Shown: positions 4,670 through 62,918, numbered from the stretch's first letter. The stretch: DNA of 64,000 bases from Candidatus Binatota bacterium (GCA_024276575.1 JAJRWY010000312.1:1161-65160); one strand, 5' to 3'. Made by a program: numbers and translations. The notes: a model not told the origin generated them from the sequence alone.

Positions 4670-5491
4670 GTGCCCGAGCTTCCGGAAGTAGAGACTATCG
4701 CGCGTTCGTTGGCGCCGTTGCTGACCGGTCGCCGGGTGCGGAGGCTAACCCTGCGGGCGACACGCTTACGCAAGCCGCTCGATTCGTCTTTGGCCGAAGC
4801 GGTTTACGGCCGTCGTATTGAAGAGGTTGGGAGGCGTGGCAAGTACCTTCTGTTGCATCTCGACGATGGTTTTACATGGATCTGGCATATGGGAATGAGC
4901 GGTTGCTTGGTCCACCAGCGTTTGGGTGAAACTCAGGCTGCACGCAAGCACGACCATGTGATTGCCGAACTCGACGATGGAGGCCGTTTGGTGTTCAACG
5001 ACCCGCGCCGTTTCGGTTTGTCGCTGGTTGATCGCATGGCCACTTGCGGCTTGTTTTCCGCCATGGGTCCGGAACTTCTCGATGTGCAGGCCTTTAATGG
5101 GCCCTACCTAGCGTCCTGGCGCCGCCGCACCGGCCGTAACATCAAGGATGTGCTGATGGATCAACGCGTCGTCGCGGGCTTGGGCAACATTTACGCCAGC
5201 GAGATACTGTTCGTGTGTGGTTTGCGTCCCACACGCCGTCTTGCACGGATGTCGCGGGCGGCCTGCGATGCTGTGGTCGTGGCAGCCAGAGAGATCATCA
5301 GCGAGGCCATAGAGCATCGCGGCACCTCAGTATCGGATTTCCTCGACGGCATCGGCAAGCCCGGAGGCTATCAGTGGCGTCTGCGGGTCTACGGGCGGCG
5401 GGGTCAGGCCTGTCCTCGCTGCGGTAGTGCTATAAAGTCGGTGCTTATATCCCAGCGTTCCAGCTTCTACTGCCCTCGCTGCCAGAAGTAG
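4670..5491 (+). CDS. mutM: Formamidopyrimidine-DNA glycosylase
   Basis: (M)PELPEVE N-terminus with catalytic Pro2/Glu3, GRRGKYL, and a C-terminal zinc finger CPRCGS...YCPRCQ. Confidence 0.92.
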   Translation: MPELPEVETIARSLAPLLTGRRVRRLTLRATRLRKPLDSSLAEAVYGRRIEEVGRRGKYLLLHLDDGFTWIWHMGMSGCLVHQRLGETQAARKHDHVIAELDDGGRLVFNDPRRFGLSLVDRMATCGLFSAMGPELLDVQAFNGPYLASWRRRTGRNIKDVLMDQRVVAGLGNIYASEILFVCGLRPTRRLARMSRAACDAVVVAAREIISEAIEHRGTSVSDFLDGIGKPGGYQWRLRVYGRRGQACPRCGSAIKSVLISQRSSFYCPRCQK

Positions 5492-12577: not shown

Positions 12578-13297
12578 GTGGCCTATCTCCCTGTATTTTT
12601 GAATGTTAAGGATCGCCGTTGCTTGGTTGTCGGGGGTGGCCCGGTAGCTGCGGGCAAGACCCGGCTACTGCTGGAGTATGGGGCGAAAACCGTCGTGGTC
12701 GGCAAGCATTTGTGTCCTGCCTTGGTGGAACTCATAGGGCGGTGGGGCCTAGAGTTCAGTGAGCGCGAGTACCGGCCTGATGACCAGCAAGGGGTCATGC
12801 TGGTGTTTGCGTGCACCGATTCTCCGGACGTACAGGCTCAGATATTAAGTGATGCACGACGATTCGGTGTGTTGGCCTGCCGTGTGGACGACGGTTCCGT
12901 TTCCGACTTCTGCAGTGCGGCGCTCATCCAACGAGGAGAGGTCTGCGTGGCGGTATCTACCTCAGGCTCGAGTCCGGCGCTAGCCGCCCGGATAAAGCGA
13001 GAGTTGGAGCCATACATAGGTTCCCACTATGGTGTGGCGGCGACACTCCTCGGGCGTGTTCGCGAGCAGGGCTACCGCGGCGTGGCGGTAAATTCGGACG
13101 CCGGCTTGGGAAGCGGCCCCCCCGTAGACCCGGAAGTTTTTGCGGAATTATTCGGACGCGGTTTTTTGGACTTGTTGGCTCGAGGGCAACTACAACAAGC
13201 AGTCGCTTTGCTCGAGGAGTTGTGCGGGTGGCGGCACGATGCGGGGCCGGTGGAGCCTGTAGGGCCTGAGATACGACGAGGGAAGCGAAAGGATTGA
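12578..13297 (+). CDS. Precorrin-2 dehydrogenase / sirohydrochlorin ferrochelatase (CysG N-terminal domain type, SirC-like)
   Basis: YLPVFLNVKDRRCLVVGGGPVAAGKTRLLL Rossmann N-terminus and VAVSTSGSSPALAARIKRELE, characteristic of siroheme synthase N-domain proteins. Confidence 0.8.
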   Translation: MAYLPVFLNVKDRRCLVVGGGPVAAGKTRLLLEYGAKTVVVGKHLCPALVELIGRWGLEFSEREYRPDDQQGVMLVFACTDSPDVQAQILSDARRFGVLACRVDDGSVSDFCSAALIQRGEVCVAVSTSGSSPALAARIKRELEPYIGSHYGVAATLLGRVREQGYRGVAVNSDAGLGSGPPVDPEVFAELFGRGFLDLLARGQLQQAVALLEELCGWRHDAGPVEPVGPEIRRGKRKD

Positions 13298-13300
13298 GAA

Positions 13301-14131
13301 TTGGAACTGCTGGCTCTCGAGTTTGCTTGCTTTGCTTACCTTACGGCTGCGGCTGCCTACATGACAGGCATAGCCTATCCATCGGATTGGACGCGGCGTT
13401 TGGGGCCCTGGGCGCTGGGAACGGCCTTTGTTCTGCAATCTCTTTCCGTCGTCCTACACGTCATCGATACCGGCGTGATCCCGGTCGAAGGGTTTACTGA
13501 GGGACTCGCATTCTTCGCTTGGCTTCTGGTTGCCACCTACGTCTTCGTACAGCGCAAGCAGGAGGTGTCAGTACTGGCTGCGGCAATAGCACCGATGGCT
13601 TTCCTGTTTACTCTGCTGGCGATCGAGTTTTATTCCGAAAGGACGGTGCTGCCGGAGTCATGGCAGACTCCATGGCTGACGGTGCATGTAACCCTGGCTT
13701 TTCTCGGCAACGCGGTGTTTGGCCTCGCCTTTGTCGTCAGCCTCGTCTACCTGGTCCAGGAACGACTGCTCAAATCTCACCGCAGGGCTTGGATGATCCG
13801 CCGCTTGCCCGCTCTGGAAACTATGGACAGGCTCGGATACCTGTTCTTGTTCTGGGGCTTCCCCCTGCTTTCGCTGGGAATGGTAAGTGGCGGGGTCTGG
13901 GCTTTGAGTATGCTCGGCAAGTTCTGGACCTGGGAACCGCGCGAGATTCTTTCGGTTATCACCTGGGTTCTGTACGCCGGCTTGCTCGAGTTCCGCCTAG
14001 TCGGCGGCCTGCGGGGTAAGCGAGCCGCCTACCTCACTATTTTGGGCTTTATGGTGCTGGTGGTTTCCTACATCGCCGTCACCCTGATTTCCGTGCCCGG
14101 CGCCAGGCACGGCGGTGTATACACTTCTTGA
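13301..14131 (+). CDS. Cytochrome c assembly protein family membrane protein (CcsA/HemX-like)
   Basis: Eight-TM-like profile with a Trp-rich segment (GKFWTWEPREILSVITWVLYA). It sits immediately upstream of hemA, as in hemAX-type clusters. Confidence 0.72.
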   Translation: MELLALEFACFAYLTAAAAYMTGIAYPSDWTRRLGPWALGTAFVLQSLSVVLHVIDTGVIPVEGFTEGLAFFAWLLVATYVFVQRKQEVSVLAAAIAPMAFLFTLLAIEFYSERTVLPESWQTPWLTVHVTLAFLGNAVFGLAFVVSLVYLVQERLLKSHRRAWMIRRLPALETMDRLGYLFLFWGFPLLSLGMVSGGVWALSMLGKFWTWEPREILSVITWVLYAGLLEFRLVGGLRGKRAAYLTILGFMVLVVSYIAVTLISVPGARHGGVYTS

Positions 14132-14143
14132 GGAAGCCGGGTA

Positions 14144-15418
14144 GTGTCACGCCAACTATCGATACTGGGGCTGAATCACCGCACTGCGCCGGTCGAGCTG
14201 CGCGAGAAGCTGGCCATGACCGAAGGCCGCGGCGAAGGCGTGCTCGCGTCTCTTCTTACTCACGACCACATAGAGGAAGTGGTGTTGCTCTCCACCTGCA
14301 ATCGGGTCGAGATTGTCTACTGCAGCCGCGAAGGTCCGATTGAGACTGAGGAGATGACCGGCTTCCTAGTCGAGGGCACCGGGCTGAGTGTGGATGAATG
14401 CGTGCCTTACCTTTACAGTTTCGAGAACCGGGAAGCGGTCAGGCATCTGTTCCGTGTGGCCTCTAGCCTGGACTCCATGGTTGTGGGCGAGCCGCAGATC
14501 CTCGGCCAAATGAAGGAGCAGTTTGACGCGTCGGTGGACGCGCATAGTGCCGGTCCTGTACTTCACCGTGTCTTTCACAAGAGTTTCTCGGTGGCCAAGC
14601 GGGTGCGTTCGGAAACCGGAATCGCCTCGAGAACGGTTTCGGTCGCCTCCACGGCGGTGGATCTGGCCAGTCATATCTTCGAGAGCCTGGAGGGCCGGAC
14701 CGTGCTGCTGATCGGCGCCGGCGACATGGGGGAGACTGCCGCGCGCCATTTCCAGGGCGCGGGGGTCAAGGACATCATGGTGGCCAACCGCACTTTTGAA
14801 AACGGCGTAGCCCTGGCCAGGGAGTTGGGAGGGACGCCGATTCCGCTCGAGCGCCTGTCCAACTACTTGCCGCTCGCCGACCTAGTGGTGGGTTCAGCCG
14901 GGGGTGGGGAGATGCTCAGCGCCAAGGAGGTCAAGGGCCTCATGCGTGAGCGCAAGGGCCGTGCGGTATTCTTCATAGATGTCGCGGTTCCCCGCAACTT
15001 CGATCCTGCGATAAACAAGATCGACGGCGCTTATCTTTACGACATGGACGACCTCTCGTCGGTGGTAGAGGAGAACCTCGAGGAAAGGCAGCGTGAGGCG
15101 GTAAAAGGCGAGGCCATAGTGGAGGGGGAGGTCGACCATTTCTGGTTGTGGTTCGAGAAACTCGGGGTAATTCCCACGATCGTTGCTTTGCGTGAGTATG
15201 CCGAGGAGATTCGCAATCAAGAACTGGAGCGTACCGTTGCCAAGCTCAACGGCATCAGCGAGGAAGACAGGATACGTATAGACCATATGACTCGTTCTAT
15301 CGTCAATAAACTACTGCATAGGCCGACCAGCGTATTGAAACGTGAAGTTCGCCCGGATGAAGAAACTCGTATGTTGAGCGCGGTTCGCAAGCTTTTTTCC
15401 TTGGAGGACGAACTGTGA
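14144..15418 (+). CDS. hemA: Glutamyl-tRNA reductase
   Basis: LSILGLNHRTAPVELRE, catalytic Cys in LLSTCNRVEIVY, VGEPQILGQ, and NADPH loop GAGDMGE. Confidence 0.93.
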   Translation: MSRQLSILGLNHRTAPVELREKLAMTEGRGEGVLASLLTHDHIEEVVLLSTCNRVEIVYCSREGPIETEEMTGFLVEGTGLSVDECVPYLYSFENREAVRHLFRVASSLDSMVVGEPQILGQMKEQFDASVDAHSAGPVLHRVFHKSFSVAKRVRSETGIASRTVSVASTAVDLASHIFESLEGRTVLLIGAGDMGETAARHFQGAGVKDIMVANRTFENGVALARELGGTPIPLERLSNYLPLADLVVGSAGGGEMLSAKEVKGLMRERKGRAVFFIDVAVPRNFDPAINKIDGAYLYDMDDLSSVVEENLEERQREAVKGEAIVEGEVDHFWLWFEKLGVIPTIVALREYAEEIRNQELERTVAKLNGISEEDRIRIDHMTRSIVNKLLHRPTSVLKREVRPDEETRMLSAVRKLFSLEDEL

Positions 15419-16359
15419 AGCTTCGTGTGGGTACGCGGAGGAGCCCCCTTGCCTTGGCCCAGGCCGGCCAAGGTATGCGCTCGGTAGTGGACAAGGCCGG
15501 GGGCGGTGAGTGGGAGTTGATTGAGATGGTCACTACCGGTGACCGCGTTCAGGACCGTCCGTTGCGCGACGTCGGAGGTAAGGCCCTGTTCGTGCGTGAG
15601 CTTGACGATGCCCTGCTGCGTGGAGATGTCGATTGCGCCATTCATTCGCTGAAAGATGTCCCCAGCGATTTGCCGGCCGGCATCGTAATTGCCGCAGTGC
15701 TCGAACGTGCCGACGTGCGTGATCTGTTGATCAGCAAACGGGGCCTGGCGCCGGCGGAGCTTGCGCCGGGGGCGCTGGTCGGCACCACTAGTTTGAGGCG
15801 TGCATCGCAACTGCTGGCCGTAAACCCGCAGGTGAAAGTCGAAACCATACGAGGCAATGTAGCCACGCGCTTGGGGCGCTTGATGGATGGGGATTTCGAC
15901 GCGACCTTTTTGGCTGCTGCGGGTATCGCGCGGCTCGGTGCCGACCTCGGAGCGGCAAAAGCCCTAGCATTAGATCCTTGGGAGTTTATTCCTGCTCCCG
16001 GGCAGGGGGCGCTGGCCATTACTGCACGTGAAGACGACCGGAAATGCAGGGATTATCTGGCTATGGCCGAGGATGGGGCGGCGCGTGCGGCGGTTGAGGC
16101 GGAGCGCGCGCTGGCGAGAGTTTTCGGCGGCGGTTGCCATCTGCCCATCGGCGTCTATGCCGAGGCCGGGCCGGGCAGCTTAAGGATGATCGCGGTCGTG
16201 GTTTCATCTGATGGGCGCCGTTTGCTGCGCGACGAGGCTTCAGGCGAGGCTAGTCACGCGGCTGCCGTGGGTGAGGCTTTAGGCCGGCGTATGCTGGAAA
16301 ACGGCGGTGCTGAGATCGTTGCCGAAGCGGAAGCGGCTGCAGCTGGGGGGCTGGTCTGA
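15415..16359 (+). CDS. hemC: Hydroxymethylbilane synthase (porphobilinogen deaminase)
   Basis: LRVGTRRSPLALAQ, IHSLKDVP, GNVATRL, and cofactor Cys in GGGCHLPIG. 4-nt overlap with hemA. Confidence 0.9.
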   Translation: MKLRVGTRRSPLALAQAGQGMRSVVDKAGGGEWELIEMVTTGDRVQDRPLRDVGGKALFVRELDDALLRGDVDCAIHSLKDVPSDLPAGIVIAAVLERADVRDLLISKRGLAPAELAPGALVGTTSLRRASQLLAVNPQVKVETIRGNVATRLGRLMDGDFDATFLAAAGIARLGADLGAAKALALDPWEFIPAPGQGALAITAREDDRKCRDYLAMAEDGAARAAVEAERALARVFGGGCHLPIGVYAEAGPGSLRMIAVVVSSDGRRLLRDEASGEASHAAAVGEALGRRMLENGGAEIVAEAEAAAAGGLV

Positions 16360-16376
16360 GCGGGCGGGTCTATCTT

Positions 16377-17852
16377 GTGGGTGCGGGGCCCGGAGATCCC
16401 GGCCTGCTGACTCTTCGCGGGAAAGAGGCCCTCGAGCGGGCTGATGTAGTCCTCTATTACGCGCTAGCGAACTCCCGCCTGCTCGATTTTGCCCCCGCCG
16501 GGGCTGAACGCATACTCGTCGGACATCGCCACGGTCAGGAGACGGTCGGGCAGAACAGCATCGAGGAGATGCTGGTGGACTACGCTCGACGCGGTAAGAG
16601 CGTGGTTCGGTTGAAGGGCGGAGACCCCTTTGTATTTGGCCGGGGCGCGGAAGAAGCCCAGGCTTGTGCGATTGCGGGGGTGCCATTTTCGGTGATACCC
16701 GGCGTGAGTTCGGCCTCGGCCGCTCCCGCCTATGCAGGCATAGCCCTGACCCACCGTGACCTGTCTTCTTCGTACACAGTGGTGACCGGCCGTCCGGGAC
16801 GCAACCGGGACGGTGAAGAGGTAGAGGCCGACTGGGAATCTTTGGCGCGAGGTGGCGGTACTTTGGTACTGCTGATGGCGATGACGCGAATCTCAGAGAT
16901 CTCCGCGAAGCTAATCGGTGCCGGTATGTCTGCGGAAACTCCTGCGGCTGCGGGTCGCTGGGGAACTCTGCCCCGGCAAAAGACAGTGACCGGATGTCTC
17001 GGAGATATTGCGAATACGGCCGCCGCGGAGTTGATACGGCCGCCGGTGGTTTTCGTGATAGGAGACGTGGTGCGGCTCGCTGAAAGCATCTACTGGTACG
17101 AGAAACTGCCACTGTTCGGGCGTCGCATCGTGGTCACCCGCGCCCGCCATCAAGCTGCGGAATTTTCGCGTCGTCTGGAGGAATCCGGTGCCTGGGTGCT
17201 CGAGTATCCGACCATAGAGATCCGGCGGCTCGAGATAGCCGATAGCCGTCTGGACGAGGTTGCGGGTGCGGATTGGCTCTTGTTCAGCAGTGTCAACGGG
17301 GTCGAGCATTTCTTCGCGAGTTATCTCGCAGCCGGGCGTGACCTGCGCGAGCTTGCCGGCGTAGGAATTGCCGCTATCGGACCGGCCACCGCCGCGGCGG
17401 TGAAGCGGCGTGGCCTGAAGGTGGACGTGCAGCCTTTAGAGTATCGAGCGGAGGCCTTGCTCGAAGCCTTGGGGGAAGTCCGCGGAATGCGGATGATACT
17501 GGCGCGGGCCAAGGTGGCTCGTGAGGTGCTGCCCGAACAGCTCCGGGCGCGCGGCGCCGAAGTCACGGTGCTTCCGGTCTACCAGACCGTGGTGCCGCCT
17601 GATTCTTCGCAGTTCACGGAGTTCGGCGAAGTCGACATGGTTACTTTTACCAGCGCGAGTACCGTAGGGAACTTCGACCGTATAAACGGAGGACGGGCCG
17701 CCGAACTCCTGGCCGGAGTCAAGGTCGCGGCGATCGGACCGATTACCGCTGCGGCTCTCAGGGACAAGGGTATTGGGGTCGACGCCATGCCGCACGATTA
17801 TACGATTCCCGCGCTAGCCGCCGAGATAGAGCGCTGCTTTGCAAATGGCTAA
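16377..17852 (+). CDS. Uroporphyrinogen-III C-methyltransferase fused to uroporphyrinogen-III synthase
   Basis: The N-terminal half is CobA/SUMT-like ([35 protein letters not shown]). The C-terminal half is HemD-like ([21 protein letters not shown] ... FTSASTV). Confidence 0.88.
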
Positions 17853-17875
17853 GCGCTAAACTAGCATTTTGCATC

Positions 17876-18844
17876 ATGCCTTTTCCTGAGCAACGGCCTC
17901 GAAGACTACGTCGCAACGAAACCATACGCCGTATGGTTCGCGAAACTTCTGTGGGTAGCGACGATCTCATGCTGCCGCTTTTCGTGGTTCCTGGTAGCAG
18001 CGTGGAAAATGAAGTGGCTTCGATGCCCGGAGTGTTTCAGCAATCGGTCGATAAAGTGGTGGAGACCGCCAGGCGTGCCGCCGGTCTCGGAATTCCCGCG
18101 GTGCTGCTGTTCGGTATTCCTGAGCACAAGGACCCGCGGGGCAGCGAAGCCTGGCGACGGGACGGAGTCGTGCAGAACGCTGTGCGGGCGATCAAGGAGG
18201 CGGTCCCGGAGCTATGTGTAACGACCGATGTCTGTCTTTGCGAGTATACCGACCACGGGCACTGTGGAGTACTATCCGGCGATAGTGTCGACAATGACGA
18301 AACCTGCGAGCTATTGGTTGCCGAAGCGGTTTCTCACGCCGAAGCAGGAGCCGATCTCATCGCGCCTTCGGATATGATGGATGGACGTGTGGACGCGATC
18401 AGGGAAGGACTCGACGACAAAGGTTTCGAGGAGATTCCGATAATGTCTTATGCCGCCAAGTACTGTTCGGGTTTTTATGGACCCTTCCGGGACGCGGCGG
18501 AGTCGGCTCCGCGCTTCGGCGACCGGCGCTCATACCAGATGGACCCGTCCAACTCCGACGAAGCGTTGCTCGAGGTCGAGCTTGATATCGAGGAAGGCGC
18601 CGACATTCTGATGGTGAAACCGGCGATGCCTTACCTCGACATAATCCGCCGGGTCAAGGACGAGTTTCAACGTCCACTGGCCGCCTACCAGGTCAGCGGT
18701 GAGTTCGCGATGATAAAAGCGGCGGCGGCGAGGGGATGGCTTGATGAGCCGCGTGTGGTTGCCGAAAGCCTGACTGCGATAAAGCGTGCGGGGGCGGACA
18801 TCATAATTAGTTATTTCGCGTTGGATTTCGCGAAGGGGGTTTGA
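17876..18844 (+). CDS. hemB: Porphobilinogen synthase (zinc type)
   Basis: Cys-rich zinc site [14 protein letters not shown], and active-site lysines in [16 protein letters not shown] and [12 protein letters not shown]. Confidence 0.93.
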
Positions 18845-21479: not shown

Positions 21480-22952
21480 TCAATCGCTCTGTGTCTTTGC
21501 GGATGCAGCGCCGGAGCTGGGGTCCGTTTTCGCGGCAGTGGCCTGAGGAGCTGCTTCGAGGAAGTCGTCCGGCTTGAAATCCAAGCGAGAGAATAAATGA
21601 CCGCCTCCTGACATGATGGTGGGGCTGCCCGCACGCTTGAAGTAATACACGGGTTGTTCGGCGCCGGGGTCCGGGGAGCCTGCCGATGCGGCGGCGCATA
21701 CATTGCCTTCGCTGTCGGCGACGCTCACCTCGACCAGGGGCCGGTATAGGCCGAAACGTTTCAGGGCCTCCGCTTCGTTGCCCTCGTCGCTCACGATATG
21801 CTCGGCCTGCAAGCGGGCAAGACCGCTACGCACTCGCAGCGGTGCCGCCTGTTTTAGCTTGCGCTGCTGCGGCGGGTCTATGGACCAGTTCCCATCACTG
21901 TCTTCTCGAAGGACGAAGGCGGTAGATGAACTTGGCCGGAAGCGCAACTCTTTTACGGTGTCGAAGTCGCAGCGAAAAACGGATTTGTCTCTCATCTCAT
22001 TGGGGTCTTTGGTGAAGATCCGTACGGAGCTGTTGGCAACCTTTGCGATCTGCCCGTCGCCGAGCCGTCTTAGGTAGTGGCCGCTCGGTTGTTCCTCGGC
22101 GACGTCGCTCATCGCGAAACCACGGCGCTCCCCACCTTTTAACTCCACCGTTACTTCGAGAACGGGTTTATCGAGACCGAGTTCGGCAAGATCAGGTTCG
22201 TAGCCATCGGTGCCGGGATCCACGAAGGCCATAGCGCGCAAGGCGTTGATCGAGGAGACTAGAGATCTAAGTCCCGACGAATCCGCCAGATCTCTGATGG
22301 GCGCCACCATGTTCCAAGTATCCCCATTGCGCTGGAAACGCACCTCGCGATCCTTTCCCCGTAGGTTGAGACTCAGGGCTTTGTCGAAGTCGATATCGAA
22401 AAGACTCTTGTCTCGTAAGTCGAAGAGCGTTTTCTTGACTCCGGAGTGAAACAATAGCGGCGTAACCACCACCTCGTCGCTGTCTTCGAGCCTAGCGAAA
22501 GCCGAGAAGCCTACGGGGGTGGTGCGCCCGACTATAATGGCCGGCAGTTCCTGGCCGTCTTTCAAACCGAACTGTATGCGGGCCTGTGTCCCGTCGCCCT
22601 CGAGCCCGTAGCTCGAAAGCTCCAAAGTCTCGCCAGCGTCCAGGCGTCGCTGAAGTTCGAGGTCAGCGGCAGCTTTGACCAAGTTGTTTACGGTTCGCTG
22701 TTCAGCGGGGTATTCCAGCGGAGCTTCGATCTGCCATTTTCCAGCCTTTCGCCTTATCAAAATCGGCTCAGCGTCCGGATACGAAAGACGTATAGTATCG
22801 ACGTCCTCAGCCGCGAAATTCAGCAATTTGTCCGGCGCCGCTTCTGCCTCCATCTTCGGCCGTTCGACGAAATAAATATATGCGCCGAAGATCAAAGACA
22901 GGGCGGTGGCCAGAATCGCCTTCCACGGTTTCACAACGAGGAGCGCCTCCAC
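21480..22952 (-). CDS. DUF4340-like protein, accessory to GldG-type ABC system
   Basis: Single N-terminal TM followed by a long soluble region. Position and size match the DUF4340 gene that usually follows gldG-like genes. This is a family call from memory, not a motif proof. Confidence 0.55.
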   Translation of the reverse strand: MEALLVVKPWKAILATALSLIFGAYIYFVERPKMEAEAAPDKLLNFAAEDVDTIRLSYPDAEPILIRRKAGKWQIEAPLEYPAEQRTVNNLVKAAADLELQRRLDAGETLELSSYGLEGDGTQARIQFGLKDGQELPAIIVGRTTPVGFSAFARLEDSDEVVVTPLLFHSGVKKTLFDLRDKSLFDIDFDKALSLNLRGKDREVRFQRNGDTWNMVAPIRDLADSSGLRSLVSSINALRAMAFVDPGTDGYEPDLAELGLDKPVLEVTVELKGGERRGFAMSDVAEEQPSGHYLRRLGDGQIAKVANSSVRIFTKDPNEMRDKSVFRCDFDTVKELRFRPSSSTAFVLREDSDGNWSIDPPQQRKLKQAAPLRVRSGLARLQAEHIVSDEGNEAEALKRFGLYRPLVEVSVADSEGNVCAAASAGSPDPGAEQPVYYFKRAGSPTIMSGGGHLFSRLDFKPDDFLEAAPQATAAKTDPSSGAASAKTQSD

Positions 22953-24505
22953 CAGACCGCAATGCCGGCCAACAGTATCAGTTCAGGTAAGACCAGCACC
23001 GACAAGTAAAAGACAGTGCGTGCTTGATCAGGTTCGAGATAGGCTCGCGACGCCCGGATTGCGCGCGGACCTATTGATATCAGTTGATCCTCACCCGCAA
23101 GCCAAGCCACTACGCTCAAGGCGAGGTCTCCGTTGAAAAGCTGCCTGATATAACGGTTGCTGACGAAACTCGCATCGCCGAAAACCGCGAAACGCATCTC
23201 ACTGTCTTGCTCTTGGCCGAAAGTTCCCGGGGGGGCGCTACCCGCCGCCGCTAACGGTACGGGGCCTTTCTTGTCGTTCTCGTCAAGTTCCGCTTCACCG
23301 GCCTCGAAGACGCGCGCGACATCGGTCTCGGCCCAACTCGATTCGGCGGTGAAAGCCAGCGGTTTCAACGTGATGCCAGGTCTCGGATCGGAAGCCATCG
23401 ATATCGACCGTGCTACCGAGAATAGTGTGCGGTTCTTGATCGGCGACACCGCCGGATGGTCCGTGTAGTGGCTGACCACCGGATCGGTGCCGAGCGTCAT
23501 ACCTTCGAACAGACGCATTTGGCGGTCGAGAATGAGATCGTCGCCAGGGAAAATCCCAAAGGCTCCAAGAACTCCGTTGAGTTCGGCACTCTTTTGCGGT
23601 TCCAGCAGGAACAACACATGCCCGCCTTCTTCCATGTAGCTGCCGATCATCTTCAACTCAGCGGGAAAGTACTCACGGTCGGCCGCACTGACTATCAGCA
23701 AGTCTGCATCGTCCGGGATCGCGCCCGCCTCGGCGGGAAATACAGAGGCTACCTCATAGTTCTGTCCGCGCAGATCAGTCGCAAACAGTCCAAGGCCCGC
23801 AGGGCTTTCGCTGTCGTCGATAGCGCCTTCTCCGTGGCCTTCAACGAAATAGATCTTCTTTTGTGTGTCCGCGGTTACGCGGTTGATACCGTTGGTTATC
23901 GATTCCTCGTCGATCTTCCTTACTACCGTAGACCGCTCGCCCTTCTTGATCTTTAGCGTTGGAACTTGAGTGACCATCTCTCGTTGGGCTAGTTCGGGGT
24001 TTACCTGAGGGTCGATGATCCGGAATTTTAGACGGTCGCTGTGGTAGTCATAGATGTCGATTACTTCACGCAAGAACTGCTCGTCGCGTGGGTCTACGAA
24101 GGCCAGGATTTCCACGTCGCCATCCAGTCGCGACAGCACCTCCCGGGATTGCTGCGAAAGGCTGTTGACTGCCGAGGCCGTCATGTCGAAGCGCTTGTGG
24201 TAGCGTACTCCCATGAAATTGGCCATTGCTATTATCGCGACAAAAGCCAGTGAGTATATCGCTGCGTTCACTCCGTAGCGCGTTGAGCGTGCTTTGGCGA
24301 AAGCAGTGATCGATCCGCTGCCAGCCCAAAAGTACCAAATCAATGCCGCGACGCCGGCGATCAGATGGGCGCCGGCGTACCAGCCGATACTTAAATATCC
24401 GGCGCGTGGATCGTAGGTCATCCAATGTTCGAGCAGTGCGAAGACGATGAAGACCAGCCCGACGATGCCCAGTATTGGAGTGCGCCTGCCCATGCTTACT
24501 TCCAC
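22931..24505 (-). CDS. GldG-family ABC-system auxiliary protein
   Basis: N- and C-terminal TM anchors flank a large periplasmic region, immediately downstream of an ABC-2 permease. The pattern is typical of the Gldg/ABC_transp_aux family. Confidence 0.68.
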   Translation of the reverse strand: MEVSMGRRTPILGIVGLVFIVFALLEHWMTYDPRAGYLSIGWYAGAHLIAGVAALIWYFWAGSGSITAFAKARSTRYGVNAAIYSLAFVAIIAMANFMGVRYHKRFDMTASAVNSLSQQSREVLSRLDGDVEILAFVDPRDEQFLREVIDIYDYHSDRLKFRIIDPQVNPELAQREMVTQVPTLKIKKGERSTVVRKIDEESITNGINRVTADTQKKIYFVEGHGEGAIDDSESPAGLGLFATDLRGQNYEVASVFPAEAGAIPDDADLLIVSAADREYFPAELKMIGSYMEEGGHVLFLLEPQKSAELNGVLGAFGIFPGDDLILDRQMRLFEGMTLGTDPVVSHYTDHPAVSPIKNRTLFSVARSISMASDPRPGITLKPLAFTAESSWAETDVARVFEAGEAELDENDKKGPVPLAAAGSAPPGTFGQEQDSEMRFAVFGDASFVSNRYIRQLFNGDLALSVVAWLAGEDQLISIGPRAIRASRAYLEPDQARTVFYLSVLVLPELILLAGIAVWWRRSSL

Positions 24506-25320
24506 CGTGCGGCTTCAACCGCCCTATGAGTCAGAAAAAGGAACAACGATGTGAGGCTCGCGAAGTACAGCAGGTCTGCTGTGTCGATCACTCCTTTGAC
24601 CATGTTGCGGAAATGTTCGGTTACCGACAGGTAGTTGAGAACGGCCTTCATCGTTTCTCCCGCACCTTCAGCCGGCCAGTTGATGACGAACAGCAGCAGT
24701 AGAATTACCAGCGAGGTGATGGTCGCGATTATCTGGTTAGAAGTCAGCGCCGAGGTAAAGTTGCCAACCGCGACGAAAGACAACGCCATCAAGTAAAGCC
24801 CCAGGTATCCGCTGAAGATGAGCCCCATCTCCGGGTTCCCGTAAACACTGACTACTGCGGGGAAGACCAGGGTGATAGCCAACATCAACGTCACCAGTGC
24901 GGCGCCGGCCAAGAACTTTCCGCCCACGATCTCGGCTACGGAAAGCGGGGAGGTAAACAGCAATTCGTAAGTGCCGGAACTGCGCTCTTCGGCGAAACTG
25001 CGCATGGTTATCATCGGACTTACGATCAGCAACACCGTCGACATGTTCTGCAACAGAGGCCCAATTACGGCATCGTTCAAATTCAACCAGGTGGTGTCCA
25101 TGCCTTGTAGCATAGAGTATTGGGCCACCAGCCGGTTGAATTGCCCGAGTAGGTTGAAGAAGAACCACCCCGACAGCAGCAGGAAGCCGGTAAGCACCAC
25201 GTAAGCGATCGGTGAAACGAAAACCGAACGGAGATCCCGCCAAGCTATGGTCAGCAGGTTACGCATCTGCGCTACCTCGCTCATCTCTAGCCCTGTCCAC
25301 GGCCTTCCCTTCTCCGGCAT
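24496..25320 (-). CDS. ABC-2 type transporter permease (GldF-like)
   Basis: Six-TM ABC-2 profile. The true start is probably ATG 25266 (MRNLLTIAWRDL, GAGG 8 nt upstream) or 25284, which gives only a short overlap with the ATPase stop. Confidence 0.75.
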   Translation of the reverse strand: MPEKGRPWTGLEMSEVAQMRNLLTIAWRDLRSVFVSPIAYVVLTGFLLLSGWFFFNLLGQFNRLVAQYSMLQGMDTTWLNLNDAVIGPLLQNMSTVLLIVSPMITMRSFAEERSSGTYELLFTSPLSVAEIVGGKFLAGAALVTLMLAITLVFPAVVSVYGNPEMGLIFSGYLGLYLMALSFVAVGNFTSALTSNQIIATITSLVILLLLFVINWPAEGAGETMKAVLNYLSVTEHFRNMVKGVIDTADLLYFASLTSLFLFLTHRAVEAARWK

Positions 25321-26086
25321 TCCCCGCCGCGGTAGCGGAAGTCCTCCCGGATCCTCCAGTGACGCCTCTGCTTTGCGCGCTGTCGCGGCCGACGTGGCGC
25401 AGGTATTCCTGCTCGAGGCTGCCGTGGCTGGTCAAATCGGCGATGTCGGTCTCCAGCGCGACGCGGCCTTCGTTGATTATGACCACTCGCTGACAGATCT
25501 GAGCGACCTCGGGAAGTATGTGCGTTGACAGGATGACTGTACGCTCGGCGGTCAAGCCTTTGATCAACTCGCGTATTTCTATGATTTGAGCAGGATCCAG
25601 CCCGATGGTCGGTTCATCGAGAATCAGTACCGCAGGCTCATGGATCAGCGCTTGCGCGAGGCCTACACGTTGCCGGTAGCCCTTGGAGAGATGCCCGCAC
25701 AACCGGCCGGCTACTGCTTCGAGTCCACATTCCGAAACTACCCGCTCCGTGGCTTGGCGAATCTGCTTGCGGGCGACGCCTTTGAGCTTGGCGACATGTT
25801 GCAAGTAACGGTCCACCTTCATTTCCAGGTATAGGGGCGGAGTTTCCGGTAGATAGCCGATGCGGCGGCGTACCTCGAAGGAATCGTCGAAGACGTCGAA
25901 GCCGTCGACGGTTACCGTACCTTCCGTAGCCGGCATGAAGCCGGTGATGATGCGCATGGTGGTGGTGTTTCCGGCCCCGTTGGGCCCGAGAAAGCCGGTT
26001 GCCTGCCCGGTTTTCGCCTGGAAACTGACGCCGGATACAGCGGTGACCGATCCGTAACTCTTACTCAGGTTCTTTACGTCTATCAT
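25259..26086 (-). CDS. ABC transporter ATP-binding protein (GldA-like), Walker A lysine replaced by Asn
   Basis: MIDVKNLSKSYG start at ATG 26086, signature LSKGYRQRVGLA, Walker B VLILDEPTIGLD, and H-loop STHIL. Walker A reads GPNGAGNTT. The ORF-track N-terminal extension to 26368 was rejected. Confidence 0.88.
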   Translation of the reverse strand: MIDVKNLSKSYGSVTAVSGVSFQAKTGQATGFLGPNGAGNTTTMRIITGFMPATEGTVTVDGFDVFDDSFEVRRRIGYLPETPPLYLEMKVDRYLQHVAKLKGVARKQIRQATERVVSECGLEAVAGRLCGHLSKGYRQRVGLAQALIHEPAVLILDEPTIGLDPAQIIEIRELIKGLTAERTVILSTHILPEVAQICQRVVIINEGRVALETDIADLTSHGSLEQEYLRHVGRDSAQSRGVTGGSGRTSATAAGNAGEGKAVDRARDERGSADA

Positions 26087-26357
26087 TTCTTGCGCGAAGG
26101 TGGCGTCGCGTCTTGATGCAACCGTCTTAGCACAAGCAAGGTGGCTGTCAAGAAAACGCGGCGACGGCGAATATAGCGACGGCGAACGCAGGGCAGGCGA
26201 ACGAAGGGGAAGTAAACTCAGCGGCGGTAAGTGGAGTCGCAGAAAGCGCAACGCCGGCACCGAACCCGGCCTCGGCACAATCGAATCCGCTTTTGATCCT
26301 CGCGGGTGCCACGCAGCCCCGGTTGCAATTGGCAATATACTGCCCGAGTGTGGCAAG

Positions 26358-29174
26358 GTGAGCGGCAACCCCGGCAGCCCGGTTTACCTGATCGACGTCA
26401 GTTTTTTCGTTTTTCGGGCCTACCACGCGTTGCCTCCGTTGAACACCTCATCGGGGCAGGCTACCAATGCGGTTCACGGGGTCGCGACCATGCTCGAGCG
26501 GCTGCTGCGCTCGGAAAGGCCCATCTATGTCGGAGCCTGCTTCGATTCTTCCGGCGACACCTTCCGCCATGAAATCTACCCCGACTACAAAGCCAACCGC
26601 GACGAACCCGATGAAGATTTGAAGCTTCAGTTCCCGTTGGTACGGCGCCTGATTCGCGCGATGAACATAACGTGTTTCGAGCACGCGGGCGCTGAAGCCG
26701 ACGATATTCTCGCGACTCTGGCGCTGCGTTGCTCGCGGGCCGGGCATAGTGTGGTGATCGTCACCGGGGACAAGGATCTCATGCAGTGTGTCAGTGACCG
26801 GGTCTCTCTGTCGGATCCGGTCAAGGGGCGGCGGGTCGGCAAGCCTCAGGTTCTGGAGAAGTTCGGTGTGGCTCCGGAGAGTGTTCCCGATGTGCTCGGT
26901 TTGATGGGGGATTCTTCCGACAATATTCCGGGTATCAAGGGTATAGGGCCAAAGAGTGCGGCGGTATTGATGGCCCATTTCGGATCTTTGGAGCAAATGT
27001 ACGAAAGGCTCGATGAGATTGAGTCGCTTTCTCTTCGCGGCGCCAAGGCGGTGCGCAAGAAGATCGAAGAAGGCCGGGCCATGGCCTTGCTGTGCCGCCG
27101 TCTGGCGACCGTCGACTACGAAATACCGGTGGATGCGGAACTCGAAGATCTACGCCTCTGTAAGCTCTCGAGCCCTGAACTCGAGGCTTTGGCTGAAGAA
27201 CTGGAGATGAGAAAGCTGCCGGTTCGCATGCGGGAGTTGGCGAGCAACCTAGGGCTCGAGATCGACAGTGGTGGTGTGGACCGTGAAGGCCATGGCGAGG
27301 CGGCGATCGAGAAGGATGGTGAAGTGCCGGGCAGATCCGCGAGTCCGGACGCAAAGATGCCTAAGCGGTCCGGGAACGGAGCTGAGGATCTCGGATTCGC
27401 GAATTCAGGGTCCGGTGAGGCTACGGGGTCAGGGATAGAGACCGGGGCTACCAGGGACCTTTTTACGACAGTTACAGATGCCGCGCAGCTGCGGAGCTGG
27501 GGAGATTGGCGGGCCATGGCCGGCGCCAGGGTCTACGTTGTTTTGATCACCGGCGGAGATTCCGCTCCCGGCCCGGCCGTACTGGCTGTCGGCCGTCCGG
27601 CGGGTGGGGAAGGGGAGTTCTTCGAGTCGGCCCTCCTGGTTGGCGAGGCGGTCCTGACACAGTGCCTGTCCGCCTACGCGGAAGCGGAAACAGATTTGGT
27701 TGGAGTGGATATCAAGGGCCTGTGCCGTGATTTCTCGGCGCGGCCGGGAAGCGACGGCCTCGATCTGGGAGTCGCTTCGTATCTGATCGACGCTTCAGCC
27801 GGGGATCACGGCCGCGAAGACATGGCCCGCCGCTTGCTCGGCGAAGAAGCTGTCGCGCTCGAAGCACGGCCTGATGCGGTCGAAGCCGCGCTTGCACAAT
27901 TACGTAGGCTCGAGTCGCGCGTGCTCGAATTGCTGAAGGAGCGTGAACAGACAAAGCTCTACCGAGAGCTTGAACACCCACTGCTTTCCTTGCTCGCCGC
28001 CATGGAAGCGCGTGGCATAATGCTCGACGTTGAGGCTCTGCACGCGATGTCGCGGGATCTGGAAGCAAGCATGGCCGAGTTGGTGGGCCGGGTCTATGAA
28101 GCCGCGGGTTGTGAATTCAACATTCTTTCGCCGCTGCAGTTGCGAGAGATCCTGTTCACGCGTCTCGGGCTGCCGAGCAAGGGGATCAAGAAGACCAAGA
28201 GCGGCCCCTCGACCGACAGCGATTCGCTGGCGGCACTGGCCGGCAAGCACCCTCTGCCCGATCTTGTCCTCGAGTACCGCGGTATGGCCAAGCTGAAGTC
28301 GACTTATGTGGACGCGTTGCCGCGCTTGGTCGACGAGCACGGGCGGATTCATACGAGACTCAACCAGACCGTGACTGCCACCGGCCGGCTCAGTTCCAAG
28401 GATCCTAACTTGCAGAACATTCCGGTGAGAACCGAGGAGGGTTCGCGTATAAGGGCGGCCTTCATCGCGCCGCCGGGAAGGCGCTTGGTGTCGGCGGATT
28501 ACAACCAGATAGAATTGAGGGTATTGGCCGAGTTGTCGCGCGACGAGAATCTGATCGCCGCTTTCGAGCAGGGGCTGGATATCCATACTGCGACTGCGGC
28601 CGAGTTGCTCGAGTTGCCGGCTGCGGAGGTGACGCCGGCGATGCGTCGTGAAGCCAAGGTGGTAAATTACGGGATCGTCTATGGTATGGGGCCGTCGCGC
28701 CTGTCACGAGAGCTTGGGATCAGCCGTGCGGCCGCTGCCGACTACATAGAGCGCTACTTCGAACGCTACGCCGGGGTTGCCCGCTACTACGAGCAAATGC
28801 TCGAGAGGGCGCGTGAACAGGGCTACGTATCTACGCTGTTTGGGCGCCGCCGCTATTTGCACGACATAAACAGTTCCCACGGAGGCCTTCGGCAAGCTGC
28901 GGAGAGAGTCGCGACCAACACCACCATTCAGGGTAGTGCCGCCGATTTGATCAAGCGCGCCATGGTCGATCTCGAGGCAGCCCTTGAAGCCAGTGGCGCA
29001 CCCGGCGCGGATCTCATTCTACAAATTCATTACGAGCTGTTACTCGAATGCGACGTGGGGGATGTCGATGCGGTTTCGGCCCTGCTGGTCGAGGTCATGG
29101 AGGGAGTTGCGGACCTCGTTGTTCCCGTTGCGGTCGAGGTGGGTAGCGGAAGCAATTGGGCCGAGGCCCACTGA
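26358..29174 (+). CDS. polA: DNA polymerase I
   Basis: 5'-nuclease domain (GAEADDILATLA, VTGDKDL, GDSSDNIPGIKGIGPK). Pol motifs A (SADYNQIELRVLA) and B (RREAKVVNYGIVYG) are present, but motif C reads QIHYELLLE. Start set at the in-frame GTG 26358 (VSGNPGSPVYLIDVS). Confidence 0.9.
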   Translation: MSGNPGSPVYLIDVSFFVFRAYHALPPLNTSSGQATNAVHGVATMLERLLRSERPIYVGACFDSSGDTFRHEIYPDYKANRDEPDEDLKLQFPLVRRLIRAMNITCFEHAGAEADDILATLALRCSRAGHSVVIVTGDKDLMQCVSDRVSLSDPVKGRRVGKPQVLEKFGVAPESVPDVLGLMGDSSDNIPGIKGIGPKSAAVLMAHFGSLEQMYERLDEIESLSLRGAKAVRKKIEEGRAMALLCRRLATVDYEIPVDAELEDLRLCKLSSPELEALAEELEMRKLPVRMRELASNLGLEIDSGGVDREGHGEAAIEKDGEVPGRSASPDAKMPKRSGNGAEDLGFANSGSGEATGSGIETGATRDLFTTVTDAAQLRSWGDWRAMAGARVYVVLITGGDSAPGPAVLAVGRPAGGEGEFFESALLVGEAVLTQCLSAYAEAETDLVGVDIKGLCRDFSARPGSDGLDLGVASYLIDASAGDHGREDMARRLLGEEAVALEARPDAVEAALAQLRRLESRVLELLKEREQTKLYRELEHPLLSLLAAMEARGIMLDVEALHAMSRDLEASMAELVGRVYEAAGCEFNILSPLQLREILFTRLGLPSKGIKKTKSGPSTDSDSLAALAGKHPLPDLVLEYRGMAKLKSTYVDALPRLVDEHGRIHTRLNQTVTATGRLSSKDPNLQNIPVRTEEGSRIRAAFIAPPGRRLVSADYNQIELRVLAELSRDENLIAAFEQGLDIHTATAAELLELPAAEVTPAMRREAKVVNYGIVYGMGPSRLSRELGISRAAAADYIERYFERYAGVARYYEQMLERAREQGYVSTLFGRRRYLHDINSSHGGLRQAAERVATNTTIQGSAADLIKRAMVDLEAALEASGAPGADLILQIHYELLLECDVGDVDAVSALLVEVMEGVADLVVPVAVEVGSGSNWAEAH

Positions 29175-29375: not shown

Positions 29376-29945
29376 GTGGAATCAGATGATGGGGAACTCG
29401 TCGGCCGCGCCAAGAACGGTGACCGGCAGGCCATGCAGCAGCTCATGGAGCGCTACCAAGGGCGTCTCACAGGTGTTGCCGTTGGTATGCTCAAGAATCC
29501 CGACGATGCCAGTGAGGTCGTTCAAGAGACCTTCATTCGTGTCTTTCGCAACCTCGCCGGTTTCAAAGGCGACTCTTCATTCTACACGTGGGTGTACAGG
29601 ATAGCCGTGAACTTGGCGATTGATTTCAAGCGCCGCCAAGCTAAGCGGCCGTTAGTTGAGTTCGATGAGAGTCTCCCCCCCAGCGAAGAGCCCATTGGTT
29701 CCGGGGCCCACGATCTCGGCGAAGATCCTTTCAAGCGTGTCAGGAATAGAGAGTTGGGCCGCAAGATTTTTCAGGCGATGGACGATTTGACCCCTGATCA
29801 CCGGGCGGTCATACTTTTGCGGGAGATCGACGGACTCTCTTACGAGGAAATCAGCAAGGTTCTCGACTGTTCGATGGGAACCGTGATGAGCCGCCTTCAT
29901 TACGCGCGCAAGAAGCTGCAGACGCGCTTGACGGAGTTATTGTGA
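29376..29945 (+). CDS. ECF-type RNA polymerase sigma factor (RpoE-like)
   Basis: Region 2 (EVVQETFIRVFRNLAGFKGDSSFYTWVYRIAVNLAIDFKRR) and region 4 HTH (LSYEEISKVLDCSMGTVMSRLHYARKKL). Confidence 0.88.
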   Translation: MESDDGELVGRAKNGDRQAMQQLMERYQGRLTGVAVGMLKNPDDASEVVQETFIRVFRNLAGFKGDSSFYTWVYRIAVNLAIDFKRRQAKRPLVEFDESLPPSEEPIGSGAHDLGEDPFKRVRNRELGRKIFQAMDDLTPDHRAVILLREIDGLSYEEISKVLDCSMGTVMSRLHYARKKLQTRLTELL

Positions 29946-30829
29946 AGGCTGTTATGAGTGAGTGCGACAAAGCTTCTGCCAACGTGATGAACTGCGCTGA
30001 GTTCAAGAAGAACTTCGATCTTTATGTAGACGATGAACTTGTCGTGACCGTTCGTGATGCGGCTGCCATGCACATTGCCTCGTGCCCGGCGTGTGAAGAG
30101 GCAGTGACCCGCTTCCAACAAAACCGCTGCATGTTGACGACGGCCGTAGCTGAACTAGCTGCGGCCGTTGACGTTTCCGGAATGTGGGAGAGAGTCGAGG
30201 CGGCTCTGGGAACGCCCGTGGCCGTAGCTGTGGAGCCGGTGCCGTCGCGGCCGCCGGCTTTCGCGAATCCGGCAGCGGGCGATATGGCGGATGCCGCGTC
30301 AAGCTCTTTGGGTAGGCGCTTGGCCGCCGCTTTCGGTTTGCGGCCGCTTGGTTATGTGTGGCGTCTGGGAACTGCTGCGAGTTTGTCGGCGGTGGCTGCG
30401 GCGATGTTGTTTTTGTTGTTTGCTGCGCCTGGTGTGGAAGTGGCCGACAACTCCGCTTCCCGATTGCAGGGTAGTTGGGGGGCACTGAGCCGCCTAGCCG
30501 CCAACTCAGATTTGCCCGTTAGCGGATCATCAAGATTTTCCTCGAGGTTTTCCCATGGCACCGGTTCGCACGTTAAGCGGGTCGCGTCCCGGCGAGTGAA
30601 GGCTGGCGGCTTTAGTGATTTTGGAGTGCCGGTTTCTTTGTCGTTGCCGTCTAAATTCTCGACGGCACTTGGTGCGCAAGCCGTGAGCCAGGCCGTTCGC
30701 GTGGATGCCATTGAGGCGGGTCCGGGCAGTTCGGTTTCCACATGGGAACTTCCGCGCAGCGGCGGCCGCGTGATATGGGTTTCCTCTACTGCCCGCACGG
30801 CGGCGTCCGCCGAAGCATTCGGTCGATGA
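29942..30829 (+). CDS. Anti-sigma factor (zf-HC2 type), membrane-anchored
   Basis: 4-nt overlap with the sigma gene, N-terminal HxxxCxxC (HIASCPACEE), and a central TM (LGTAASLSAVAAAMLFLLFAA). Confidence 0.7.
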   Translation: MKAVMSECDKASANVMNCAEFKKNFDLYVDDELVVTVRDAAAMHIASCPACEEAVTRFQQNRCMLTTAVAELAAAVDVSGMWERVEAALGTPVAVAVEPVPSRPPAFANPAAGDMADAASSSLGRRLAAAFGLRPLGYVWRLGTAASLSAVAAAMLFLLFAAPGVEVADNSASRLQGSWGALSRLAANSDLPVSGSSRFSSRFSHGTGSHVKRVASRRVKAGGFSDFGVPVSLSLPSKFSTALGAQAVSQAVRVDAIEAGPGSSVSTWELPRSGGRVIWVSSTARTAASAEAFGR

Positions 30830-53266: not shown

Positions 53267-53284
53267 CATGCGCGGCGGTTGTTT

Positions 53285-55516: not shown

Positions 55517-56780
55517 GACGATTTTGCTTGTAGATGACGATGCCAAGGTTCGCGAATCGATACGTGGCGTTCTCGGAGATGAAGGCTATGAGGTCGTAAC
55601 TGCATCCAACGGCGTTCAGGCCATGGATGCGGTTGCGGTGCATAACCCCGATCTCATCTTGCTTGATTTGTGGATGCCGGAGATGGATGGCATCGAGTTC
55701 TTACAGCAGGCTGGGTCCGGGGACTCGGCGATTCCGGTGATCGTGATCTCGGGCCACGGCAACGTGGAAACGGCGGTCCGCGCGACCAAGCTTGGAGCCG
55801 TGGATTTCGTCGAGAAGCCGTTTTCCATCGACGGGCTTCTAGCGGCGGTAAACGGAGCCTTGAATCGTTTCTCCCCCGACGAAGGTGCCGCTAGCGTCGT
55901 GGCCGGGCAATTGCCTTCGGCCGGTGGCGCGACGGCTGGTGTCAGCCAGCGCACGTTGGCGCAAAGCGTGGTCGGTGGCGGACTCGGCTTACATAGCGGG
56001 GTGAGGACCGGATTGATCTTGCAGCCGATGCCGCCGGGGAGCGGGATAAGTTTTGCGAGTATAGCGGGCGAGGGCAAAGTGCTCGCACATGTGGACAACG
56101 TGGATTCCACCGGCTACGCGACCACACTGTTCGACAAGGGGACGGTTGCGCGAACGGTAGAACATCTCATGGCGACCCTGCACGCTTATGGGATCACCAA
56201 TCTGCTGGTGAAGATAGAAGGCGAAGTGCCGATTCTAGACGGCTCAGCGGCCGAACTCTGCCAGTTGATAGACTCGGTTGGTGTAGAAGACCAGCCCTCG
56301 GCCATCGCTCCCATAGTGATCGAGGAGGAAGTGCGCATAGACGCCGGTCCGGACGAATTCATCGTGATTCGTCCTCATGACGGTTTCGAAGTAACCTACG
56401 AACTTTCTTATCCGCCGCCGGTGGGGGAACAGAGTTACACATTTTGCTTCGAAGGAGCCGGGTCGTTTCGTTCGCAGATCGCTCCGGCGCGTACCTTCGG
56501 CTTTGTCGAGGAGATCCGCGCGTTGGAAGGAGCGGGGCTAGGCCAGGGAGGACAGCTGAGCAACTTTATACTGATCGGCGAGGGCAGGATCGTCAACACC
56601 GAATTACGCTTCCCCGAGGAACTCGCGCGCCACAAGATCCTTGATATCATGGGAGATTTCTATCTCCTCGGGGCACCGATACGAGGCTCGCTGCACGCGC
56701 GAAAAACCGGGCATTCGCAGAACATCGCGTTGATGCGATTGCTAAGCGAGGGCAGAGGGAGAAGCGCGTCGAGTCGTTGA
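55509..56780 (+). CDS. lpxC: Response-regulator receiver domain fused to UDP-3-O-acyl-N-acetylglucosamine deacetylase (REC-LpxC)
   Basis: REC: DDD 9-11, D53 (LILLDLWMPEMDG), S81, K103 (EKPF). LpxC: QRTL at residue 147, GLGLHSG, TVEHL (E218/H219), PILDGSA, ARTFGF, RHKILDIMGD (H375, D379, D383), KTGHS (H402). The start overlaps the kinase stop (ATGCCTGA). Confidence 0.85.
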   Translation: MPETILLVDDDAKVRESIRGVLGDEGYEVVTASNGVQAMDAVAVHNPDLILLDLWMPEMDGIEFLQQAGSGDSAIPVIVISGHGNVETAVRATKLGAVDFVEKPFSIDGLLAAVNGALNRFSPDEGAASVVAGQLPSAGGATAGVSQRTLAQSVVGGGLGLHSGVRTGLILQPMPPGSGISFASIAGEGKVLAHVDNVDSTGYATTLFDKGTVARTVEHLMATLHAYGITNLLVKIEGEVPILDGSAAELCQLIDSVGVEDQPSAIAPIVIEEEVRIDAGPDEFIVIRPHDGFEVTYELSYPPPVGEQSYTFCFEGAGSFRSQIAPARTFGFVEEIRALEGAGLGQGGQLSNFILIGEGRIVNTELRFPEELARHKILDIMGDFYLLGAPIRGSLHARKTGHSQNIALMRLLSEGRGRSASSR

Positions 56781-62344: not shown

Positions 62345-62403
62345 ACCGGCTTTTTTCGATTCGTGATTGAGCGGCCGCGGGCCTGGCACTGAACTATCCT
62401 TGG

Positions 62404-62859: not shown

Positions 62860-62918
62860 GCGGCAAAAACCCCGGCGACAGGAAAATCTTGTGTAGCAAA
62901 AAAACACGATGGTAAATC

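Follow-up and report, generated by a model that had tools for sequence, protein, structure and literature searches.

A lone aspartate-to-tyrosine change in motif C of an otherwise ordinary DNA polymerase I gene from an uncultured Binatia-like bacterium

Either half of E. coli polA is said to support growth on rich medium, a result that Joyce and Grindley reportedly obtained in 1984. H. pylori without the polymerase is viable and sensitive to genotoxic agents, and its 5'-nuclease is essential (PMC3121766); B. subtilis ΔpolA is near wild type, as DnaE together with FEN compensates (PMC13082043). These E. coli, H. pylori and B. subtilis mutants show that what cells cannot spare in Pol I is its 5'-nuclease; they survive loss of its polymerase activity, which the replicative polymerase makes good. 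Mycobacteria tolerate insertions in the polymerase domain of Pol1, and M. smegmatis Pol1 carrying D684A-D861A keeps its FEN/EXO activity with less than 1% of its polymerase activity (PMC7102940). That a polymerase-null, FEN-proficient Pol I is compatible with viability, as a preliminary description of the locus studied here presupposed, is therefore well supported by published genetics (PMC7102940, PMC3121766, PMC13082043). In the literature that we searched, we came upon no lineage in nature whose Pol I polymerase site is inactivated by a point change.

Here, we analyzed a polA gene in which the aspartate of polymerase motif C reads as tyrosine. The gene lies in a 64 kb window, by which we mean the whole stretch of DNA that was analyzed, and which is an ordinary housekeeping chromosome region bearing PBP1, tsaD, fpg, opp, haem biosynthesis genes, obg, proB/proA, ruvCAB, lpxC and T2SS genes. 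The coding sequence (26358-29174, plus strand, with the database start GTG at 26358) specifies a 938-aa protein, P0001, whose database copy is 100% identical to the window's polA product. The mechanical open reading frame around it spans 26100-29174 on the plus strand, with the motif C codons in frame. From its N-terminus, and all on the plus strand, the product comprises an intact 5'-3' exonuclease/flap endonuclease domain (26382-27164; Pfam PF02739 and PF01367), a disordered Gly/Ser/Glu-rich linker to the central domain (27273-27476; P0001 residues 306-373, pLDDT <50) that varies in length across the aligned clade, a vestigial 3'-5' exonuclease domain (27477-28031) that lacks the Exo I, II and III carboxylates, and a family A polymerase domain (28032-29165; PF00476, E=1.6e-148). 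Pfam matches nothing further in the product. Both NCBIfam DNA polymerase I equivalogs are passed, NF004397 at 919.5 bits (cutoff 720) and TIGR00593 at 859.4 bits (cutoff 600).

Structural comparison places the protein next to well-studied enzymes. The AlphaFold (AF2) model of P0001 has a mean pLDDT of 89, and its top structural matches in Foldseek are Taq (rank 1), M. smegmatis Pol1 (rank 3) and the Bst large fragment; by phmmer against the PDB, Taq Pol I is the best match (E=5e-162). Like P0001, Taq (PDB 1TAQ/1BGX) combines a 5'-nuclease, a vestigial 3'-5' exonuclease domain without carboxylates and a family A polymerase. Unlike P0001, which has HYE, Taq has HDE (D785), while P0001 in turn differs from Taq in its disordered linker of ~70 aa and in a tyrosine at the position of Taq F667. 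M. smegmatis Pol1 (PDB 6VDE; PMC7102940) likewise joins FEN/EXO and POL in a full-length enzyme whose exonuclease domain is vestigial, and the D684A-D861A phenotype is what would be predicted for P0001 if the tyrosine were real. That mutant, however, is a laboratory double alanine affecting motifs A and C, whereas P0001 carries one natural or artefactual Asp-to-Tyr change in motif C alone. The H. pylori, B. subtilis and E. coli mutants differ from P0001 as well, being engineered deletions or insertions in cultured strains.

The surroundings of the gene allowed us to assess its orthology. An ABC-2 transporter permease (24496-25320, minus strand) belongs to the conserved upstream neighbourhood used for positional orthology, and an ECF sigma factor gene (29376-29945, plus strand) follows polA, as it does in related genomes. 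In at least 20 related loci, a polA with HDE likewise lies between the ABC-2 transporter cluster, upstream, and the ECF sigma/anti-sigma pair, downstream, and thus the window's gene is the orthologue and not a decaying paralogue. On the strength of this conserved synteny, and with no other polymerase encoded in the 64 kb window, we reject a degenerate paralogue beside a second, intact polA. We conclude that this is the ordinary chromosomal polA of an uncultured Binatia-like bacterium and encodes its Pol I orthologue.

Within the polymerase domain, the tyrosine is set among intact catalytic motifs. Motif A (SADYNQIELR, 28491-28520, plus strand) has its catalytic Asp and Glu, D714 and E719, at positions where none of the 120 aligned sequences varies. 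Motif B (RREAKVVNYGIVYG, 28644-28685, plus strand) retains the R, K and Y that are invariant among the 120 homologues (R763, K767 and Y775); its site equivalent to E. coli F762 is a tyrosine, as in 66 of the 120. The motif C beta-hairpin (LILQIHYELLLECD, 29013-29054, plus strand) was located by phmmer alignment and is a hairpin in the model, with strands at 885-890 and 893-899 on either side of the His-Tyr turn, the usual arrangement of this motif. At 29028-29036 on the plus strand, the window reads CAT TAC GAG, that is, H-Y-E in place of the canonical HDE. The His and Glu that flank the tyrosine occupy columns that are both invariant in the 120-sequence alignment, and H891 and E893 are kept in P0001, as is the motif A Asp.

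The phmmer alignment pairs 'lilqihyelllec' of P0001 with 'mllqvhdelvlea' of Taq, and the tyrosine therefore occupies the position of Taq D785 and Klenow D882. Mutants of D882 reportedly showed very large losses of kcat in work by Polesky et al. in 1990 and 1992. The residue equivalent to Klenow D882 is described as invariant, as binding the catalytic metal directly and as essential for catalysis (PMC10520511, PMC1904276, PMC7102940). Where P0001 has the tyrosine codon TAC (29031-29033, plus strand), every relative has GAC or GAT; one base therefore differs, G to T at 29031. Several claims of the preliminary description hold up on this evidence: HYE at 29028-29036 is in motif C, in frame and aligned to Taq D785; motifs A and B are normal, with catalytic residues invariant in 120 homologues; TAC lies one base from GAC, one of the two codons used by the relatives; and the motif C aspartate is an invariant metal ligand, found in every homologue examined and described as such (PMC10520511, PMC1904276). 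We also considered P856T, in the segment NTPIQG, as a second lesion, and it is not anomalous, because four other homologues carry the same Thr.

The 5'-nuclease, described beforehand as intact, indeed retains all ten of its near-invariant carboxylates (D13, D63, E113, D115, D116, D138, D140, D153, D185 and D188). If the sequence is right, the essential role of the motif C aspartate, together with this full set of carboxylates, predicts a FEN-proficient, polymerase-null Pol I.

The central domain bears on how unusual the gene is as a whole. In an L-INS-i alignment, neither P0001 nor any of the 17 clade members sampled has Exo I, II or III; in these sequences, deletions have removed the Exo II 'YD' and the Exo III segment. 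By comparison, most of 14 sampled homologues with Pfam exonuclease domains have all three (D-x-E-T for Exo I, N-x-K-Y-D for Exo II and Y-x3-D for Exo III), although in three of the 14 (P0083, P0084 and P0095) clear motifs are missing too. A Pfam search of the central region of P0001 gave no match even at E<=10. The model has pLDDT >90 across most of residues 384-558 and superposes on the Bst large fragment over ~580 residues (TM 0.85-0.87, rmsd ~3 Å), so the exonuclease fold is kept. The preliminary description was thus right that Exo I is missing, as both the alignment and the Pfam search indicate, but it cited the wrong peptide: VYVVLITGGDS (27531-27563) matches the beta-strand that follows Exo I, and the DxE position falls within the insertion immediately upstream. 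Its label of 'Taq-like, exonuclease-dead' is correct, though it applies to the whole clade. About half of Pol I orthologues (PolA1) have a disrupted DEDDy site (PMC12926913); the same loss is seen in P0001 and its clade, which in this respect do not differ from PolA1 with an inactivated site. The loss of proofreading motifs is real, clade-wide and ordinary, and the gene is a previously unseen but ordinary addition to the exonuclease-deficient Pol I group, alongside the Taq, Bst and mycobacterial enzymes. As this loss is clade-wide and common in Pol I, it adds nothing to the oddity of the tyrosine.

The tyrosine is found in P0001 and nowhere else in our comparisons. Among the 120 best homologues, aligned with MAFFT, the motif C column is D in 119 of 120 sequences and Y in P0001 only. 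A second search, which returned C-terminal fragments, gave HDE in 120/120, so that all 239 other homologous proteins (119 full-length and 120 C-terminal fragments) have HDE. We also took 160 related loci from genome and metagenome collections, 157 of which reach motif C; HDE is present in every one of the 157, with 142 recovered by a strict pattern and 15 more by a looser one. In the other three (L013, L076 and L079), the polA matches end at about query residue 832-857, upstream of motif C; in the pattern scan, L076 and L079 gave no match and L013 gave spurious matches only. The alignment with the closest PolA relatives that the preliminary description proposed therefore yields no Tyr-bearing relative with which to compare P0001, the residue being absent from them all. 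Across these sequences, the tyrosine is without evolutionary depth.

Nor did we find a second copy of the allele. The P0001 cluster has a single member, on a single 69,691-bp NCBI contig, and the source organism is a deep singleton lineage among Binatia/'Deltaproteobacteria' MAGs. The nearest full-length relative of P0001 is about 60% identical and the nearest C-terminal pieces are 63-71% identical. Exact-sequence look-ups of P0001 and HemB found no other contig on record, scans of genome and metagenome contigs with polA gave nothing above 71% identity, and a short-fragment search with the C-terminal 174 aa had a best match of 68% identity. Neither these look-ups, contig scans and fragment search nor the P0001 cluster contained an independent assembly of the same population. 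With nearest relatives just 60-71% identical, the Tyr allele is thus without corroboration, and equally without any sequence that contradicts it.

If P0001 had long done without its polymerase, then the polymerase domain might carry other marks of the loss. Relaxed selection in this domain can be rejected: P0001 keeps 89 of 90 near-invariant polymerase-domain columns, and its identity to the clade consensus in this domain is 76%, against a clade median of 75%. The whole protein has 136 columns with conservation of 97% or more; P0001 matches 135 of them and departs at the motif C Asp alone. The polymerase domain is the best-conserved domain of P0001, with 74% identity to the nearest relative compared with 65% for the 5'-nuclease, and its polymerase-to-nuclease conservation ratio falls at the upper end of the range seen in the clade. 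From this lack of relaxation, we infer that the change, if real, would be confined to a small terminal fraction of a long branch.

How surprising is one such change? Of the columns in the 120-sequence alignment, 92 never vary and 15 vary in exactly one sequence, so that a singleton at an invariant column occurs in roughly one in eight metagenome-derived PolA (15 among 120 sequences). Radical singletons in other metagenome PolA include P>R, Q>L, G>D and W>G, and N>S is also among the singletons. On the three catalytic carboxylate columns, ~0.4 singletons would be expected by chance (15 x 3/107), and thus one catalytic-column singleton is unremarkable, especially when many windows are screened for such anomalies.

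The contig offers its own controls. RuvB, encoded on the same contig, has three deviations at columns at least 97% conserved, all of them conservative (T>S, L>M, Y>F), and HemB has none; Fpg/MutM is intact, the contig is ~94% coding with 0 ambiguous bases, and we noticed no split genes among the window genes scanned. An error-rich or hypermutated contig is therefore unsupported by RuvB, HemB and Fpg/MutM, and since the contig is otherwise clean, random consensus error must be rare per base, a point that counts against an error as the source of the tyrosine. More particular sources of the change fared no better. A local assembly chimera, for which AT-rich codons near motif C might have spoken, is not indicated, as GC3 there lies at the gene's 5th percentile and is no outlier. 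A systematic miscall at a methylated CATG, the presumed original being CATGAC, is argued against by an observed/expected ratio of 0.96, which shows that CATG is not depleted. A search for an overlapping opposite-strand feature turned up just an ORF of low GC3 and a single promoter-like match, no more than chance would give. The tyrosine is thus an isolated anomaly, which an infrequent error in the consensus would fit as well as a true point mutation.

Our comparisons establish the sequence itself, its match to Taq D785 and Klenow D882, that no other sequence shares the tyrosine, that the gene is otherwise intact and that it is orthologous by position; from these we infer an artefact or an allele that is not fixed. 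On balance, we favor the view that the tyrosine is probably a consensus or base-call error or a non-fixed rare allele, and not a property of the lineage. In this model, a single G-to-T change at 29031, the first base of the Asp codon, would have turned GAC into TAC, either through a consensus or base-call error or because the assembler picked a rare deleterious allele. The native enzyme would then have HDE and be a normal gap-filling and nick-translating Pol I.

It is possible, and we put it forward tentatively, that the T at 29031 is instead real and the majority allele, a very recent loss-of-polymerase mutation in a protein that keeps its flap endonuclease. Such a folded protein would cut 5' flaps and RNA primers with polymerase activity well below 1%. 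Pol III (DnaE) or another polymerase would have to fill Okazaki and excision-repair gaps, and the cell would pay with sensitivity to DNA damage. The ten intact 5'-nuclease carboxylates, the model with its mean pLDDT of 89 and the apparent accuracy of the contig elsewhere, as judged from the RuvB and HemB controls, all fit this account, and M. smegmatis, H. pylori and B. subtilis tolerate loss of the Pol I polymerase (PMC7102940, PMC3121766, PMC13082043). Weighing against it are the status of the tyrosine as an uncorroborated singleton, a polymerase domain that is unrelaxed in 89 of 90 near-invariant columns, and the fact that deleterious alleles of a conserved repair enzyme seldom reach majority frequency. 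The fuller claim, that the tyrosine is real and carried by the sampled population, making this a free-living Binatia-like bacterium with a point-inactivated, flap-endonuclease-only Pol I, we regard as unlikely.

A polymerase-dead PolA that selection has long maintained for its flap endonuclease or as a scaffold, while a dedicated other enzyme fills Okazaki gaps, is highly improbable. The substitution itself and the known primacy of the 5'-nuclease (PMC12926913) are what speak for it. Against it, the change is shared by 0 relatives, with Asp in all 119 full-length proteins, 120 fragments and 157 loci; motifs A and B and all other near-invariant polymerase residues are kept; the polymerase is better conserved than the nuclease (74% versus 65% to the nearest relative); and surveys of family A and bacterial polymerases describe no such Pol I group (PMC12926913, PMC10201439). 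A second polymerase, the presence of which the preliminary description had proposed to check, is not encoded in the 64 kb window. P0001 also differs from evolved pseudo-polymerases, such as ImuB and the inactive half of Pol epsilon, in that it has neither a clade-shared loss nor a relaxed domain. Of the two origins offered in the preliminary description, error or a PolA kept for its flap endonuclease, the first is thus compatible with our data, as is a very recent mutation, and the second, taken as a long-standing state, is argued against. Least credible of all is continued polymerase activity of the Tyr protein, whether E893 and D714 bind the metals unaided or the enzyme has come to use metal or substrate differently. 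P0001 does retain E893, H891 and the Asp of motif A, but the D882 equivalent is described as invariant, as a metal ligand and as essential (PMC10520511, PMC1904276, PMC7102940), and is Asp in every homologue examined.

Our preferred reading, an error or a non-fixed allele, carries a caution: a lone catalytic-residue change in a normally constrained gene, without read support, does not amount to functional divergence. As matters stand, the HYE polA is chiefly a caution about metagenome singletons at invariant residues. If the tyrosine were real, the gene would parallel in nature the polA mutants that laboratories have made in the polymerase domain, and Okazaki and repair gaps would be left to Pol III or another polymerase. 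The organism would then be a bacterium that dispenses with the Pol I polymerase and keeps the 5'-nuclease, which would fit the recent view of the nuclease as the indispensable part of the enzyme.

Because the odd base in polA motif C is a G-to-T change, we inspected the window's fpg/mutM gene (4670-5491, forward strand). The gene is intact, with an N-terminal PELPEVE and a C4 zinc finger, and nothing points to defective repair of 8-oxoG. Other metagenome-derived PolA homologues also carry radical changes that occur only once, at positions otherwise invariant in the 120-sequence alignment. Across four of them (P0034, P0052, P0110 and P0111) we find a G>D change adjoining motif A, a W>G change close to the C-terminus, a Q>L change within NQTxTATGR, and a P>R change. 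These singletons offer a useful gauge of noise, or of rare alleles, in metagenome-derived data.

In motif B, the alignment places a tyrosine (NYG, 28665-28667) at the equivalent of E. coli F762 and Taq F667, the position that governs dideoxynucleotide discrimination. This residue is shared by 66 of the 120 PolA homologues, and the T7 and mycobacterial enzymes have tyrosine here too. By analogy with those enzymes, Pol I proteins with this tyrosine, the window's own polA product (P0001) among them, probably accept dideoxynucleotides.

The 5'-nuclease of P0001 is joined to its vestigial exonuclease domain by a Gly/Ser/Glu-rich linker of about 70 residues (27273-27476, forward strand), which is predicted to be disordered (pLDDT < 50 in the structure model) and varies widely in length among clade members in the alignment. 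Upstream of the database GTG start at 26358, a mechanically called ORF extends polA by 86 codons (26100-26357, forward strand), overlapping there with the long ORF (25259-26368, TTG start) of the divergent ABC ATPase. The 5' extensions of both ORFs are probably untranslated.

The surroundings of polA are strongly conserved in Binatia-like genomes (loci L001-L021, L066 and L081-L084). Upstream lies a divergent cluster encoding a DUF4340 protein, an ABC-auxiliary protein, an ABC-2 permease and the ATPase (21480-26368, reverse strand), and downstream are an ECF sigma factor and a putative anti-sigma factor (29376-30829, forward strand). Elsewhere in the window, a compact tetrapyrrole cluster (12578-18844, forward strand) comprises a sirohaem-synthase-like NAD-binding protein, a ccsA-like cytochrome c assembly protein, hemA, hemC, a fused cobA/hemD and hemB. 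Type II secretion genes (gspM, L, K, G and F-like) occupy 56839-63971 on the reverse strand, in a run that includes one ORF, 56839-57639, with no Pfam match. Finally, a HAMP/PAS histidine kinase (53279-55516) is encoded directly upstream of an LpxC, the UDP-3-O-acyl-GlcNAc deacetylase, that carries a response-regulator receiver domain fused at its N-terminus (55509-56780, forward strand), an arrangement that could couple two-component signalling to lipid A synthesis.
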